Shown piece by piece: positions 26 through 4,270 of a DNA stretch of 4,270 nucleotides. Both the position numbers and the translations under genes were made by a program. This DNA comes from a virus (Duplodnaviria > Heunggongvirae > Uroviricota > Caudoviricetes): IMG/VR virus record IMGVR_UViG_2579778894_000011; one strand, 5' to 3'. Each line of letters starts with the position of its first letter. Position 1 is the first letter of the stretch. The notes below the pieces were generated by a model, which saw nothing but the letters and a program-made list of their open reading frames with translations, ran no database searches and had not been told where the DNA came from.

Positions 26-214
26 TCATTGCCAGCATCCTTTTTGTATCGGACGTAAACGGGCCAGCATTGAAAGAATGCATATTTTATTTAATAACTC
101 CCGTTCGTGTTTTCTCTTGTTAATGGCATCTTCAGTAAATACAGGGTTACTGATAGTGACACCAATTTCAAAACAACCTTCAGACGTATTAACGTTTGGT
201 AATAACGTTTCCAT
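26..214 (-). CDS. dicB: Cell-division inhibitor DicB (62 aa); the track ORF 26..319 is an over-extension
   Basis: Minus-strand ORF. The internal ATG at 214..212 gives a 62-aa product, METLLPNVNTSEGCFEIGVTISNPVFTEDAINKRKHERELLNKICILSMLARLRPIQKGCWQ, matching my recollection of E. coli DicB in length and sequence. A GAGGA Shine-Dalgarno lies about 7 nt upstream on the minus strand. It sits downstream of DicF as in the known dicB operon. The 35 extra N-terminal residues in the track ORF have no ribosome-binding site. Confidence 0.8.
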   Translation of the reverse strand: METLLPNVNTSEGCFEIGVTISNPVFTEDAINKRKHERELLNKICILSMLARLRPIQKGCWQ

Positions 215-380: not shown

Positions 381-402
381 TTTAAAAACGGCGGCAGAGC
401 AG
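381..402 (-). terminator. Possible leaky intrinsic terminator at the DicF 3' end (GC-rich segment followed by a T-run on the minus strand)
   Basis: Minus-strand RNA reads ...CUGCUCUGCCGCCG followed by UUUUUAAA (plus 381..388 = tttaaaaa). GGCGG and CCGCC segments within DicF can pair. dicB lies downstream, so any termination must be partial. Confidence 0.35.
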
Positions 403-441
403 TCACGGAGTAAAACTGATACCGCCAAACGTCACCAGAAA
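389..441 (-). ncRNA. dicF: DicF small regulatory RNA (about 53 nt, antisense regulator of ftsZ and other mRNAs)
   Basis: The reverse complement of 389..441 is tttctggtgacgtttggcggtatcagttttactccgtgactgctctgccgccg, which matches my recollection of E. coli DicF almost base for base. Its position between ydfC and dicB on the dicA strand is the known arrangement. The exact ends are processing-defined and cannot be fixed from sequence alone. Confidence 0.8.
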
Positions 442-782: not shown

Positions 783-1001
783 CTAACGCGGGTATGTAAT
801 CATTCTGGCAATGCTTAATGCCGCTGCTTTTTCCAGATTGGTGATATCCTGCTCCAGAGCGGACAGATTTTCAGCCTGCTTAGCTCTGGCTTCATTGGCC
901 CATTTCAGATCCTGCGCTGCATTAATTTTCTGGTGCATCCACTCATAAAGTTCATCATCGGTATAGTCTGGCGCGATGATGACGGGTTCTCGTTTCTGCA
1001 T
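783..1001 (-). CDS. ydfC: Small prophage protein YdfC-like (72 aa), function unknown
   Basis: 72-aa minus-strand ORF with ATG at 1001..999 and a GAGGAA Shine-Dalgarno 5 nt upstream (plus 1007..1012 ttcctc). The position (third gene after dicA) and length match YdfC of the Qin dicB operon; identity is from recollection, not a search. Confidence 0.75.
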   Translation of the reverse strand: MQKREPVIIAPDYTDDELYEWMHQKINAAQDLKWANEARAKQAENLSALEQDITNLEKAAALSIARMITYPR

Positions 1002-1030
1002 ACTGATTCCTCGCGGTGCTGTTTCGCTTA

Positions 1031-1159
1031 TCAGCCGTTAGATTTTGCCGAACTGGAAAGCGCCTGTTTAAATTCGTTGAAGCTGAGAGCTTCTTCGCCT
1101 TCGGCAAGACCTTCGAAGTATTCTTCGTAAGCCTTTTCCATGATTGTGTCGAAATCCAT
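1031..1159 (-). CDS. ydfB: Small acidic prophage protein YdfB-like (42 aa), function unknown; absent from the supplied ORF track
   Basis: Hand translation of the minus strand gives MDFDTIMEKAYEEYFEGLAEGEEALSFNEFKQALSSSAKSNG, with ATG at 1159..1157 and stop TGA at 1033..1031. A GGTGA Shine-Dalgarno lies about 5 nt upstream. The start sits 1 nt after the ydfA stop (TGAtATG). Length and position match YdfB (42 aa). Confidence 0.7.
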   Translation of the reverse strand: MDFDTIMEKAYEEYFEGLAEGEEALSFNEFKQALSSSAKSNG

Positions 1160-1160
1160 A

Positions 1161-1316
1161 TCACTCACCTGAGTTTCTTTCCAGCCAGCGACGGGCACCA
1201 TTTTCGGTTTTAAACGTTTTGCTTTTGGTATACGTCATCGCGGTGAACGTACCGTCCTGGTTGGGAAACACGCCGTACACCAGAGATTCGTTGTTGCCAA
1301 GATCGATAGTATCCAT
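1161..1316 (-). CDS. ydfA: Small prophage protein YdfA-like (51 aa), function unknown; first gene of the dicB operon
   Basis: The internal ATG at 1316..1314 of track ORF 1161..1370 gives the 51-aa product MDTIDLGNNESLVYGVFPNQDGTFTAMTYTKSKTFKTENGARRWLERNSGE, with a GAGGT Shine-Dalgarno 5 nt upstream. The upstream ATG at 1370 has no ribosome-binding site. Length matches YdfA (51 aa). Confidence 0.7.
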   Translation of the reverse strand: MDTIDLGNNESLVYGVFPNQDGTFTAMTYTKSKTFKTENGARRWLERNSGE

Positions 1317-1393
1317 GCTGACCTCATTTCCCCTTAACGCTGGGGTAGCGGAACTGTTTGCTGAGAACACCGTGCGGTGTGTTGATGCAAATA

Positions 1394-1422
1394 AGATTAG
1401 CCATGGCTAACATATAGGTCAA
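1394..1422 (-). promoter_or_regulatory. Candidate sigma70 promoter of the ydfA-ydfB-ydfC-dicF-dicB operon (PdicB-like): -35 TTGACC, 17-bp spacer, -10 TAATCT on the minus strand
   Basis: Minus-strand read: cactTTGACCtatatgttagccatggcTAATCTtatttg. The -35 is plus 1417..1422 (ggtcaa) and the -10 is plus 1394..1399 (agatta). It lies about 75 nt upstream of the ydfA start and overlaps the palindrome at 1397..1410. Confidence 0.45.
1397..1410. promoter_or_regulatory. Candidate DicA operator: palindrome TTAGC-CATG-GCTAA overlapping the spacer and -10 of the candidate dicB-operon promoter
   Basis: Perfect 5-bp inverted half-sites separated by 4 bp. It belongs to the same family as the two palindromes in the dicA-dicC intergenic region (1893..1906 and 1943..1956). 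Confidence 0.5.
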
Positions 1423-1460: not shown

Positions 1461-1491
1461 AAAAGATAACTCATTGATGATGTTATCTTTT
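1461..1491. other. Perfect 10-bp inverted repeat AAAAGATAAC-(11 nt)-GTTATCTTTT overlapping the dicA stop codon
   Basis: Arms at 1461..1470 and 1482..1491. Read on the plus strand it is followed by TTTTATTTG, so it is terminator-like against antisense transcription into dicA. On the minus strand it is not followed by a U-run. Confidence 0.35.
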
Positions 1492-1890
1492 ATTTGTCCG
1501 CTGACGGGCTTTTAGTAATTCTTCAAAGAGTTTATTGAAGTTTTTTACTCGAGCTCGCATTTCGGCGAGCTGGGTATCCTGTTCTGATTCTGGCAGTGCA
1601 TTAAACAGCTCAAGGAGCTCTAGTTCTTTGGGGGATAAGGCAACTGGCTTCTCAACAGGTGGTGTTGGTTGCTTGTCTTCATCGCCAAATAGAATCCATG
1701 TTGGTGAGCATTGCAATACTTTGCTGAGGGCAAAAAGGTTCTTCCCTGTAGGTTCACTATCATCCCGTTCCCATTGTGATACAGACACATGGGAGATTTT
1801 CAGGGCTTTAGCAAGAGACCTTTGGGTGTGTTTGAGGTTTTTCCGACGATACCTAATGCGTTCGCCGATAGTTAAATTTTTTGTTTCCAT
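1483..1890 (-). CDS. dicA: Prophage repressor DicA (CI/C2-like HTH_XRE repressor, 135 aa)
   Basis: 135-aa minus-strand ORF, METKNLTIGERIRYRRKNLKHTQRSLAKALKISHVSVSQWERDDSEPTGKNLF..., with an N-terminal helix-turn-helix (QRSLAKALKISHVSVSQWE). It matches my recollection of E. coli DicA and is divergent from a Cro-like gene. Confidence 0.9.
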   Translation of the reverse strand: METKNLTIGERIRYRRKNLKHTQRSLAKALKISHVSVSQWERDDSEPTGKNLFALSKVLQCSPTWILFGDEDKQPTPPVEKPVALSPKELELLELFNALPESEQDTQLAEMRARVKNFNKLFEELLKARQRTNKR

Positions 1891-1973: not shown

Positions 1974-2204
1974 ATGCTTAAAACTGACGCTCTTTTGTAT
2001 TTCGGTTCAAAAACAAAACTTGCACAAGCAGCAGGTATTCGTTTGGCTTCGCTTTATAGCTGGAAAGGGGATTTAGTTCCCGAAGGTCGCGCGATGCGTC
2101 TACAGGAGGCATCTGGCGGGGAGCTTCAGTATGATCCCAAAGTTTATGATGAATATCGTAAGACGAAGCGGGCGGGGCGGTTGAACAATGAAAATCACTC
2201 CTGA
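1974..2204 (+). CDS. dicC: Cro-like regulator DicC (76 aa)
   Basis: 76-aa ORF, MLKTDALLYFGSKTKLAQAAGIRLASLYSWKGDL..., with an AAGGTG Shine-Dalgarno 6 nt upstream. It is divergent from dicA and matches my recollection of E. coli DicC. Confidence 0.88.
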   Translation: MLKTDALLYFGSKTKLAQAAGIRLASLYSWKGDLVPEGRAMRLQEASGGELQYDPKVYDEYRKTKRAGRLNNENHS

Positions 2205-2709
2205 ACAGGCTCGTGAGGCTCTGGATGCCTGGATATGTCGACCAGGAATGACACAGGAGCAGGCGACGATATTAATCACTGAAGCATTCTGGGCTTTGAA
2301 AGAGCGCCCGAACATCGATGTTCAGCGTGTCACAGATGAAGGTGGCGCGGTTGATCAGCGAGCGCTTGGCGTTAATCGAGTGAAGATATTCGAACGCTGG
2401 AAGGCTATCGACACCAGGGATAAGCGTGAAAAGTTCACGGCGCTAGTGCCTGCGATTATGGAGGCTATCCGGATTAGTGATTTCAGGTTGTATCGTGAGA
2501 TCAGTGATGGAAAAAGTATTACGTACATGATCGCCGGGTTAAATAAAGAATATGGCGATGTGGTGGAATCCGGACTGCTTTTTGCAGATCCTGCCGTTGT
2601 AGATCGTGAAACTGACGAACTTATAGAAAAAGCAATTGCTTTCAAGCTTGCGTATCGACAGCAATACCAACAAAAAGCTGGATGGAATTATGAGTCTTCT
2701 TTTTGCTGA
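2188..2709 (+). CDS. YdaT-family prophage protein (173 aa), likely a CII-like regulator; often labelled toxin YdaT in databases
   Basis: 173-aa ORF directly after the Cro-like gene, overlapping its 3' end by 17 nt. This position is held by YdaT-family proteins in Rac/Qin-type prophages. The family assignment is from gene order and general resemblance, not a search. Confidence 0.6.
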   Translation: MKITPEQAREALDAWICRPGMTQEQATILITEAFWALKERPNIDVQRVTDEGGAVDQRALGVNRVKIFERWKAIDTRDKREKFTALVPAIMEAIRISDFRLYREISDGKSITYMIAGLNKEYGDVVESGLLFADPAVVDRETDELIEKAIAFKLAYRQQYQQKAGWNYESSFC

Positions 2710-3655
2710 ACGCCCACTGGTTATAAACACGCAGCTGGCAATGAAAATTGGCTTAAACGAAGCCATTGTTTTGCAACAACTGCACTACTGGTTGAGAGAT
2801 ACCAACTCCGGCATGGAATGTGATGGTGTTCGCTGGATTTATAACACAACGGAACAATGGCTGGAACAGTTCCCATTCTGGTCAGAGTCAACGTTAAAGC
2901 GCGCGTTTGCAAGTCTGAAAACGCTGGGGCTTTTGCGTTGTGAAAAGCTCAATAAATCAAAGCGCGATATGACCAATTTCTACACGATCAACTACGGGAG
3001 CGAGCTTTTAGATGGTGGCAAATTGAGCGAATCCATCGGTTTAAAATGCGCCGCTCCATCAGGTCAAAATGACACGATGGAAGAGGTCAAAATGAAACGC
3101 TCCATTGGTTCAAAACGACTCAATGTCATCGGGTCAAAATGGCCTGATGATCTTACAGAGAATACAACAGAGATTACTACAGAGAATAAAAAGACTTCTC
3201 GTCCGGAAGCTTCGCAACCGGACCCGCAGACGGTTGAACAGGATTTTTTAACCCGACACCCTGACGCGGTTGTGTTCAGTGCGAAAAAACGCCAGTGGGG
3301 CAGCCAGGAAGATTTGGCGTGTGCGCAGTGGATCTGGGGGCGAATCGTGAGTCTTTACGAGCAGGCCGCCAGCGATGATGGCGAGATTTCGCGACCGAAA
3401 GAACCCAACTGGACCGCATGGGCCAACGACGTGCGCACAATGCGGATGCTGGATGGCAGAACTCACAGACAAATTTGTGAAATGTTTGGTCGGGTGCAGC
3501 GGGATCCATTCTGGGTAAAAAATATCATGAGTCCGTCAAAGCTTCGCGAAAAATGGGATGAACTGGTTATCCGCCTGGGGCGTTCGTTTGTACAGCGTTG
3601 TGTGAATCATATTTCTGAGCCGGATACCGAAATTCCGCCGGGCTTCAGGGGGTAA
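2690..3655 (+). CDS. Phage replication initiator (replisome-organizer, O-like) protein; start uncertain (2690 or 2744)
   Basis: Long ORF (track 2636..3655). An N-terminal winged-helix-like segment (MSLLFAERPLVINTQLAMKIGLNEAIVLQQLHYW...) resembles phage replisome-organizer N-terminal domains. Iteron-like repeats and an AT-rich block sit inside the coding sequence, as with lambda O and ori. The ATG at 2690 overlaps the upstream stop by 20 nt. Confidence 0.7.
   Translation: MSLLFAERPLVINTQLAMKIGLNEAIVLQQLHYWLRDTNSGMECDGVRWIYNTTEQWLEQFPFWSESTLKRAFASLKTLGLLRCEKLNKSKRDMTNFYTINYGSELLDGGKLSESIGLKCAAPSGQNDTMEEVKMKRSIGSKRLNVIGSKWPDDLTENTTEITTENKKTSRPEASQPDPQTVEQDFLTRHPDAVVFSAKKRQWGSQEDLACAQWIWGRIVSLYEQAASDDGEISRPKEPNWTAWANDVRTMRMLDGRTHRQICEMFGRVQRDPFWVKNIMSPSKLREKWDELVIRLGRSFVQRCVNHISEPDTEIPPGFRG
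3062..3142. repeat. Four iteron-like direct repeats (GGTCAAAATGA core) spaced about 23 bp apart inside the replication gene; candidate origin iterons
   Basis: Copies at 3062..3072 (ggtcaaaatga), 3085..3095 (ggtcaaaatga), 3107..3118 (ggttcaaaacga) and 3132..3142 (ggtcaaaatgg). The last is embedded in a local dyad, TCATCgggtcaaaatggccTGATGA. Confidence 0.55.
3155..3188. repeat. AT-rich block with three 12-bp-periodic repeats ACAGAGA(A/T)TA immediately after the iterons; candidate DNA-unwinding region of the origin
   Basis: acagagaata at 3155..3164, acagagatta at 3167..3176, acagagaata at 3179..3188. It encodes a low-complexity linker (TENTTEITTEN) in the replication protein, analogous to the lambda ori layout. 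Confidence 0.5.
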
Positions 3656-3695
3656 GTGTTAATTTCTGGTCATGAGGTAATTTTCAGGAGGGCTT

Positions 3696-4118
3696 GTGGC
3701 AAAAGTTTTTACACAAGAAGAGCGGGAAAAAATTAAAGGGCAGGTTGTTGAACTCGTACGCCGGAGTGGGCGTGAGACGTTACGGCAACTGGAAGTCAAG
3801 ACAGGTGCGACAAGATATCTGATGAGCGTTCTCGCAAGAGAGCTGGTTGCCAGCGGCGATGTATACAACTCTGGTTACGGGTTATTCCCGTCTGAACAGG
3901 CGCGTAAGGACTGGCAAAATGCCCGTAAAAAGCTCTCAAGGGCAAAGCTGAAGGAACCATCTGCGGTTGATCCGGACCTTATCTGGTCATTACCTGACGG
4001 AGAAATACGTCGCTACGACAGGCGTCAGAACATAATCTGTCGCGAGTGCCGGAAGAGTGAAGTTATGCAGCGCATACTAGCATTCTATCAGGGAAATGCT
4101 CGATATTTATTGAAGTGA
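3696..4118 (+). CDS. Hypothetical prophage protein (140 aa), unknown function, GTG start
   Basis: ORF with a strong AGGAGG Shine-Dalgarno (3686..3691) 4 nt upstream of GTG at 3696. It has no Walker A motif, so it is not a DnaC/P-type helicase loader. A basic stretch and a single CxxC (ICRECRK) are present. Confidence 0.6.
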   Translation: MAKVFTQEEREKIKGQVVELVRRSGRETLRQLEVKTGATRYLMSVLARELVASGDVYNSGYGLFPSEQARKDWQNARKKLSRAKLKEPSAVDPDLIWSLPDGEIRRYDRRQNIICRECRKSEVMQRILAFYQGNARYLLK

Positions 4119-4180
4119 TGAGATTAAAGTTTATTAGTTCAGATATTGATTGGCTCTTTTGTGGAGTAGGGTAGAGTTAG

Positions 4181-4270
4181 GGAAGGTGCGAACAAGTCCC
4201 TGATATGAGATCATGTTTGTCATCTGGAGCCATGGAACAGGGTTCATCATGAGTCATCAACTTACCTTCG
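4181..4270 (+). mobile_element. IS5 left end (terminal inverted repeat GGAAGGTGCGAACAAG at 4181..4196), continuing beyond the window
   Basis: The sequence from 4181, ggaaggtgcgaacaagtccctgatatgagatcatgtttgtcatctggagccatggaacagggttcatcATGagtcatcaacttaccttcg, matches my recollection of the IS5 terminus and the start of its transposase. It is immediately preceded by TTAG (4177..4180), which fits the IS5 target preference (YTAR). Confidence 0.85.
4249..4270 (+). CDS. insH: IS5 transposase InsH, first 7 codons only (MSHQLTF...); truncated by the window edge
   Basis: ATG at 4249 followed by codons for SHQLTF, matching the N-terminus of the IS5 transposase as I recall it (MSHQLTFADSEF...). Confidence 0.8.

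Follow-up and report, generated by a model that had tools for sequence, protein, structure and literature searches.

ydfA and ydfB, two small genes that open the dicBF operon of a Qin-type prophage: genuine coding genes in separable cassettes

Results

ydfA and ydfB begin the DicA-repressed early-left operon

The window analyzed here, the whole 4,270-nucleotide stretch of IMG/VR record IMGVR_UViG_2579778894_000011, is the immunity region of a Qin-type lambdoid Escherichia coli prophage. Its segment from 760 to 1500 is 100% identical to E. coli SLK172, many other strains reach about 98% identity, and 4093 of 5426 complete E. coli genomes match it. The minus strand carries dicA, ydfA, ydfB, ydfC, the DicF RNA, and dicB, in the same order as NC_000913.3. 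The plus strand carries the divergent dicC (P22_Cro-like), a YdaT-like gene, a replication-O-like gene, and a DUF977 gene.

The first minus-strand gene, dicA (1890..1483), encodes a CI-like repressor. It is a 135-aa ORF that matches Pfam HTH_3 (9.8e-16) and Phage_CI_repr, carries the name dicA in RefSeq, and lies directly upstream of the ydfA-led operon. Next on the minus strand are ydfA (1316..1161; 51 aa, DUF1391), with its ATG at 1316..1314 and its TGA stop at 1163..1161, and ydfB (1159..1031; 42 aa), with its ATG at 1159..1157 and its TGA stop at 1033..1031. The third member of the small-gene trio is ydfC (1001..783; 72 aa; phrog_1744, 1e-39), also so named in RefSeq. Its ATG at 1001 follows ydfB after a gap of 29 nt (1030..1002). 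Farther along the same strand lie the DicF small RNA (440..389; Rfam RF00039, 72.5 bits, gathering score 48) and the cell division inhibitor gene dicB (214..26; 62 aa; Pfam PF05358 DicB, 1.7e-37). With dicA, ydfA, ydfB, ydfC, DicF, and dicB all on one strand, this is the dicBF operon, and ydfA and ydfB are the first two cistrons of this DicA-repressed early-left operon of a Qin-type lambdoid prophage. The temperate phages Tritos and PhiR42_1 have the same module between the repressor and DicF, dicB, ydfD, exonuclease VIII, xis, and int. Therefore, the module belongs to an immediate-early leftward operon in those phages.

The short forms of both genes are the correct ones

The original prediction read two short minus-strand ORFs of 51 and 42 aa, each with a good Shine-Dalgarno sequence, as YdfA and YdfB of the dicB operon. 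We confirmed the peptides, their coordinates, and the assignment, with DicA, YdfC, DicF, and DicB all present around them. The YdfA peptide, MDTIDLGNNESLVYGVFPNQDGTFTAMTYTKSKTFKTENGARRWLERNSGE (51 aa), is identical to E. coli K-12 b1571 at 51 of 51 residues; it is the same gene from another strain, in the same place after dicA, with no difference. YdfB agrees with K-12 b1572 at 41 of 42 residues, and the junction and the operon are the same in K-12. YdfA also matches Pfam PF07151 (DUF1391) over profile positions 1 to 48 of 48, with 98.5 bits against a cutoff of 27.3, and the Rac-prophage protein YdaF is a YdfA paralogue that shares DUF1391. YdfB matches the PHROG profile phrog_2061 (2e-27). 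No Pfam or NCBIfam family was found for ydfB or ydfC, and both match only PHROGs of unknown function.

The ydfA Shine-Dalgarno sequence GAGGT (1325..1321, minus strand) ends 4 nt before the ATG. That of ydfB, AGGTGA (1170..1165, minus strand), ends 5 nt before its ATG and lies within ydfA codons 48 to 50 (Ser-Gly-Glu). The TGA stop of ydfB is followed by a second in-frame stop, TAA, at 1030..1028 (minus strand).

One of the two genes had been described as missing from the ORF list. This is right in that the 42-aa form itself falls below the length cutoff of the list. However, that form is nested in a listed 56-aa ORF from an ATG at 1201, and RefSeq annotates ydfB along with ydfA and ydfC. The mechanical list likewise lengthens ydfA to 69 aa by starting it at a GTG (1370). 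We rejected both longer forms, neither of which has a Shine-Dalgarno sequence. In Salmonella, Cronobacter, and Citrobacter, the YdfB homologues share the start Met of the short form, and loci without ydfA join the leader and its Shine-Dalgarno sequence straight to the ydfB ATG, which also counters the long ydfB form. The PHROG profiles include such extensions because gene callers choose the longest ORF.

Both genes are under purifying selection

We compared 24 to 30 distinct alleles per gene. The pN/pS in the annotated frame was 0.17 for ydfA, 0.33 for ydfB, and 0.33 for ydfC. Off-frame values were 2.8 to 3.0 for ydfA, 0.86 to 2.98 for ydfA and ydfB taken together, and 0.64 to 2.98 when ydfC was included. 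Between genera, the 29-codon YdfB core had a dN of 0.03 to 0.2 and a dS from 0.7 to saturated. The reading frames of both genes are intact in related prophages and in Tritos and PhiR42_1. Thus, ydfA and ydfB are genuine protein-coding genes under purifying selection in their annotated frames only, and the earlier suggestion that they matter to the prophage gains support from this selection. Amino acid constraint with saturated synonymous sites also argues against a purely RNA-level role of the gene body. In the literature texts that we searched, we found no direct ribosome-profiling or tagging evidence for translation of YdfA or YdfB.

The genes are tightly joined but occur independently

The stop codon of ydfA and the start codon of ydfB form the junction TGA-t-ATG at 1163..1157 (minus strand). 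Its 1-nt spacer and the 29-nt distance from ydfB to the ydfC start are as first described. At least 120 IMG/VR contigs contain the exact junction CAGGTGAGTGATATGGATTT, which is invariant at every ydfA-to-ydfB locus compared. The window holds 70 ORFs of at least 20 aa, so short ORFs alone are unremarkable. A same-strand pair of ORFs of at least 40 aa each, with Shine-Dalgarno sequences and ATG starts and a spacing of -4 to +5 nt, arose in 2 of 1000 mononucleotide shuffles. With the ydfB Shine-Dalgarno sequence inside the last three ydfA codons and a 1-nt gap between stop and start, the two genes are probably translationally coupled.

However, each gene is also found without the other, and their tight coupling does not make them a functional pair. 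Without ydfA, a YdfB-family gene is the first one called after the CI-type repressor in Citrobacter, Cronobacter, Salmonella, Klebsiella, and Pantoea prophages and in one unassigned contig. The leader is fused straight to ydfB, without ydfA, in 14 IMG/VR contigs, and in E. coli variants the ydfB ATG comes directly after the ydfA leader and its Shine-Dalgarno sequence. Conversely, ydfA occurs without ydfB in Rac-type loci (ydaG-ydaF) and in loci where it is followed by a 125-aa gene or by some other small gene. Therefore, ydfA and ydfB are mosaic cassettes and not an obligate pair.

Wherever the genes are present, the leader, the promoter-proximal position, and the gene order are kept, the order being leader, a ydaG-like gene, ydfA, ydfB, and then ydfC or others. 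Breakpoints between cassettes fall just before the ribosome-binding site of the next gene. The C terminus of YdfA varies with its neighbor: it reads ERNSGE before ydfB, where its codons spell the ydfB Shine-Dalgarno sequence, and ARNTD or EKHTVS otherwise. ydfA is also joined by a 1-nt spacer or an overlap to unrelated downstream genes (TAAaATG in locus L099, TGATG in loci L086 and L095). Therefore, coupling is general in this region and is no sign of partnership.

A conserved leader motif precedes the first gene

A probable dicBp promoter can be read from the sequence at 1422..1394 (minus strand), with a -35 hexamer TTGACC (1422..1417), a 17-nt spacer, and a -10 hexamer TAATCT (1399..1394). 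The literature places dicBp upstream of ydfA, and many related loci have a TTGAC-type hexamer at the corresponding position. A consensus promoter scan did not call the 1422..1394 site. A possible hairpin, ACACC-GCAC-GGTGT (1380..1367, minus strand), lies near the 5' end of the transcript and appears in the predicted MFE and centroid structures. Related loci have different but hairpin-capable sequences at the equivalent position (CAACGA..TCGTTG, CAGC..GCTG, and GCAC..GTGC).

Directly 5' of the ydfA Shine-Dalgarno sequence is a conserved 25-nt leader motif, GTTCCGCTACCCCAGCGTTAAGGGG (1354..1330, minus strand). It recurs behind promoters, operators, and repressors of unrelated types, and a scan within about 3 kb found it on the leftward side of the loci only. 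The motif had no Rfam match. The motif core precedes whichever gene comes first, be it ydfA, ydfB, or a ydaG-like gene.

The helix CGCY/RGCG of the leader can pair in 12 of 12 variants, and in two of its four pairs the changes are compensatory (C-G becomes G-C, and C-G becomes U-A by way of U.G). The loop CCC(C) can pair with a downstream GGG(G), and CCG and CGG are swapped in two lineages. Such pairing would make an H-type pseudoknot possible, although the covariation is thin, with few independent events. The fold energy of the leader is ordinary (MFE z = 0.15) and gives no support for a thermodynamically stable structure.

Predicted folds of YdfA and YdfB

AlphaFold2, run with the family alignment, predicted YdfA as a disordered N terminus followed by three β-strands and a C-terminal helix (pLDDT 80). 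The model superposes on AP2 domains with 1.6 Å over 38 residues at 26% identity and also matches UPF0339 (YegP) and dsRBDs. The predicted fold thus has a weak resemblance to nucleic-acid-binding domains, and YdfA has a conserved basic patch made up of K31, K33, K36, R42, R43, and W44. At E ≤ 10, YdfA matched no Pfam family besides DUF1391, the AP2/ERF profile included, and a PDB sequence search found no AP2 chain. Foldseek against BFVD returned nothing for YdfA at E ≤ 0.001.

Two other identities for YdfA were rejected. A relationship to the head-decoration protein D/SHP comes from a 19-residue match to 1td0 (E = 0.012), which is too short, and the predicted fold of YdfA is different; the label "head-DNA stabilization protein D" in phage PhiR42_1 is probably due to this match. 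As for membership in a defense system, PADLOC gave only a marginal AbiEi match (E = 0.009).

YdfB has a net charge of -7 in 42 aa and a pI of 4.05, a high negative charge density such as acidic DNA-mimic or anti-restriction proteins (Ocr, ArdA, and gp5.9 type) have. It was predicted by AlphaFold2, again with the family alignment, to be a helix-loop-helix (pLDDT 85), for which Foldseek found nothing in the PDB. YdfB also had no match to Ocr, ArdA, or the anti-defense or PADLOC families.

An EF-hand reading of YdfB was considered and rejected. The profile search placed one eukaryotic EF-hand protein at 7e-5. The loop LAEGEEALSFNE, with Leu as its first residue and Glu as its sixth, departs from the canonical 12-residue DxDxDG...E calcium-binding pattern. 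The Pfam EF-hand was not matched, and the PDB matches were marginal (E = 0.17 to 1). We also set aside P0230 and P0273, highly significant multi-repeat matches to YdfB; these fall on a short "EGDRGRSFAEFKVTL" segment, and to the eye the repeats resemble unrelated β-sheet repeat proteins.

YdfB belongs to a wider family of acidic miniproteins

A profile search of 1.84 billion representatives placed 77 clusters at 50% identity in the YdfB family. A word-indexed search gave 443 clusters at 90% identity, all named "hypothetical," from Escherichia, Salmonella, Citrobacter, Cronobacter, Klebsiella, Raoultella, and Pantoea. Family members are 29 to 50 aa long, and the 29-aa Klebsiella member, MDKAYEEYFNSLAEGEEALSFAEFVEALS, is the core alone. 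Y14, F15, and G21 are invariant, and Y11, E12, L18, E23, S26, and E29 are nearly so. YdfB is thus a member of a wider, uncurated family of 29- to 50-aa acidic miniproteins, with a predicted helix-loop-helix fold, in Enterobacterales prophages. The breadth of this family was not recorded in the libraries or literature that we searched.

The YdfB-family gene is usually the first after a CI-type repressor, and it is the first called gene in that position at loci L101, L104, L107, L108, L110, L116, and L118. Remoter members sit among strings of small phage ORFs. Genuine ydfB is on plasmids in only three records. The IncI1/IncK plasmid genes named "ydfA" and "ydfB" presumably follow an unrelated naming scheme.

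Published expression and phenotype data

Papers of 2016, 2023, and 2024 still describe ydfA, ydfB, and ydfC as being without known function, in agreement with the original prediction. ydfA mRNA is present in stationary phase as a 1146-nt ydfABC-dicF transcript that depends on RNase E and RNase III. ydfA is induced by an ionic liquid and is one of four Qin genes differentially expressed upon DicC induction. In an overexpression screen, the many candidates for oxidant resistance included ydfA and ydfB.

In one published construct, Plac was placed before ydfA, dicF and dicB were deleted, and ydfABC was kept. Induction left growth and viability normal and caused no filamentation (PMC5069750), and lambda-vir plated nearly as on the control. 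Therefore, YdfA, YdfB, and YdfC are jointly nontoxic when expressed to this extent, and lambda-vir is not excluded by them. These data, obtained with ydfABC expressed together, show no toxicity of the kind found in toxin-antitoxin modules, and the normal growth and morphology argue against host takeover by a toxic activity. The anti-defense role raised in the original prediction is conceivable, but nothing found here supports it.

Discussion

Taken as a whole, the locus is probably best explained as the known genes ydfA and ydfB in real, coupled, but separable cassettes that encode stoichiometric-binder proteins. At 51 and 42 aa, and with a conserved YdfB core of 29 aa, YdfA and YdfB are too short to be enzymes. 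Each most likely acts by binding, in stoichiometric amounts, a conserved macromolecule of the host or phage, and both would be made as soon as derepression or infection sets in. YdfB, with its invariant Tyr, Phe, and Gly and its nearly invariant Leu, probably dimerizes into a small four-helix bundle. The type of the adjacent repressor varies while YdfB is conserved, so the repressor itself is an unlikely target of YdfB.

T7 Ocr, T7 gp5.9, and phi29 p56 are very small, strongly acidic phage decoys that are transcribed first or early. YdfB is like them in size, acidity, and early position, but it has no homology to them and no structural match. From charge, size, and gene position, our preferred guess is that YdfB might dimerize into an acidic bundle and serve as a decoy for one of the host proteins that bind DNA, for instance a nuclease, restriction enzyme, or nucleoid protein. 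We offer this tentatively. For YdfA, the model hints at binding of RNA or DNA through the K31/K33/K36/R42/R43/W44 patch, a suggestion fainter still. Equally doubtful is the broader proposal that the whole YdfB family, as a widespread first early-left product of about 30 aa, could be an immediate-early decoy that neutralizes a conserved DNA-binding defense or repair factor of the host, with the leader, perhaps through its pseudoknot, controlling translation of the first cassette.

The lambda PL proteins Ral, CIII, Kil, and Gam offer a second comparison. They are likewise small and nonessential, and they are made from a repressor-controlled leftward promoter in a mosaic region upstream of recombination functions, xis, and int. 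Ral, CIII, Kil, and Gam act by binding host proteins, which is a feature of the lambda proteins; YdfA and YdfB have no detectable sequence or profile similarity to them. There is no N-type antiterminator here either. The N termini of YdfA and YdfB are acidic and the leader motif is leftward only, which does not fit the lambda N/nut system, where the first gene product has an arginine-rich N-terminal peptide and both early operons have boxA/boxB sites.

The main alternative is that the two proteins regulate the development of the phage itself and do not act on host defenses. For instance, YdfA would bind the leader RNA or the polycistronic dicBF mRNA and alter its processing or translation, and YdfB would be a CIII-like modulator of the choice between lysis and lysogeny. 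The first position after the repressor, beside the conserved leader motif, fits this idea, as do the resemblance of the YdfA fold to dsRBD and AP2-type nucleic acid binders and the dependence of the upstream dicBF transcript on RNase III and RNase E. Lambda CIII is likewise a small early-left protein. However, the active helix of CIII is basic and amphipathic whereas YdfB is acidic, and neither CIII nor N shares sequence similarity with the proteins here. In addition, many natural prophages that retain this leader can dispense with ydfA or with ydfB, and the fold energy of that leader is ordinary. We therefore regard a role in phage development as unlikely.

It is also conceivable that ydfA and ydfB act in cis and not through their proteins: ribosomes kept on the promoter-proximal mRNA by their translation would shield it from Rho or RNases and so allow DicF and dicB expression. 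They do lie, as short ORFs, at the start of a long operon that includes an untranslated stretch, and the stability of the upstream mRNA segment depends on RNases. Nevertheless, the strong amino acid constraint and the saturated synonymous changes speak for the proteins, and the YdfB core is conserved in prophages with no dicF or dicB downstream. These points make such a cis role improbable.

We hold it very improbable that ydfA and ydfB form an obligate two-component module, as a toxin-antitoxin-like system or a heterodimer. The TGAtATG junction is invariant wherever both genes occur, but either gene is often alone, which largely refutes the idea; ydfABC without dicF and dicB is not toxic, neither protein matched a toxin-antitoxin family, and ydfA is coupled in a similar way to unrelated genes. 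Finally, the view that these are chance ORFs or decaying remnants can draw on the defective state of Qin in K-12, the frameshifted or truncated copies at loci L098 and L100, and the many "partial" entries, but it is refuted by purifying selection, intact copies in temperate phage genomes, and hundreds of clusters in several genera.

ydfA and ydfB were already known and annotated, and the original finding is correct but not new. What is added here is the picture of the YdfB family, the independence of the cassettes, the conserved leader motif, and the fold prediction for YdfA. The advance is an incremental clarification of known genes and not a new element. ydfA and ydfB are long-standing "y-ome" genes of the best-studied bacterium; about three quarters of complete E. 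coli genomes have them, and one genome often carries them in several prophages. They become more tractable now that they are seen to be real and selected, to be independent cassettes, and, for YdfB, to belong to a broad family in the promoter-proximal position. The 29-aa core peptide of YdfB can be synthesized.

Leader of the early-left operon

A conserved leader motif, GTTCCGCYA-N-GCGTTAA-GGG, lies at 1330-1354 on the minus strand. It directly precedes the Shine-Dalgarno sequence of the operon's first gene, whether that gene is ydfA, ydfB, or ydaG-like, and it is shared by different immunity types and genera. Two short helices in the motif show compensatory changes, which makes it possible that the leader forms a small pseudoknot. 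A hairpin of variable sequence accompanies the motif close to the 5' end (1367-1380, minus strand). The leader sequence CCGCCA would be complementary to UGGCGG in the DicF small RNA.

DicB and the rightward genes

Compared with the K-12-type DicB, MKTLLPN...IVSMLARLRLMPKGCAQ, the DicB of the window (26-214, minus strand), METLLPN...ILSMLARLRPIQKGCWQ, is different mainly in its C-terminal part. The K-12 type is present in locus L005 and others, and L019 carries the same variant as the window.

In K-12 Qin, only the short ydfX and ydfW follow dicC. However, the prophage in the window has longer rightward genes there (2188-4118, plus strand). The first is a YdaT-like gene of 173 aa, which has a 17-nt overlap with dicC; the others are a replication-O-like gene of 321 aa and a DUF977 gene of 140 aa. 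An IS5-family element is inserted after the DUF977 gene; its left end (about 4165-4270, plus strand) forms the 3' end of the window, and its transposase begins at 4249 with ATGAGTCATCAACTTACC on the plus strand.

First genes of the operon

Residues 21-39 of YdfA (1200-1256) resemble SHP, the head-decoration protein of phage 21, over 19 residues (PDB 1td0, E 0.012); the aligned segments are dGtftAmtYTkSktFKtea in YdfA and EGTETALTYYKSGTFATEA in 1td0. This similarity is probably the source of the label "head-DNA stabilization protein D" given to ydfA in the temperate phage PhiR42_1.

The final five to six residues of YdfA (1161-1185) vary with the downstream gene, reading ERNSGE, ARNTD, or EKHTVS (compared loci L086, L087, L095, and L099), because their codons encode the ribosome-binding site of the next gene. 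Therefore, mosaic breakpoints fall inside the 3' end of ydfA.

Among the IMG/VR loci L003-L082, 80 in total, we found 11 in which YdfB residues 1-34 are followed by a long C-terminal extension of a different kind (L004, L005, L006, L008, L019, L020, L028, L049, L077, L080, and L082); ydfC is absent from all of these. These ORFs (for example, L005:1063-1638) encode 191-205 aa, match phrog_35040, and contain CPICGF. Shortened versions of 48-83 aa also occur (proteins P0040, P0034, and P0229). The long form could represent either a genuine fusion protein or a scar left by recombination.

In Rac-type loci, a YdaG-like protein of 44-46 aa, MVHYEVVQYLMDCCGITYNQAVQALRSNDWDLW..., holds the first position, before the YdfA homologue YdaF (L087:2856-2990; L095:2849-2989). 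The YdaG-like gene may represent a third interchangeable first-gene cassette.
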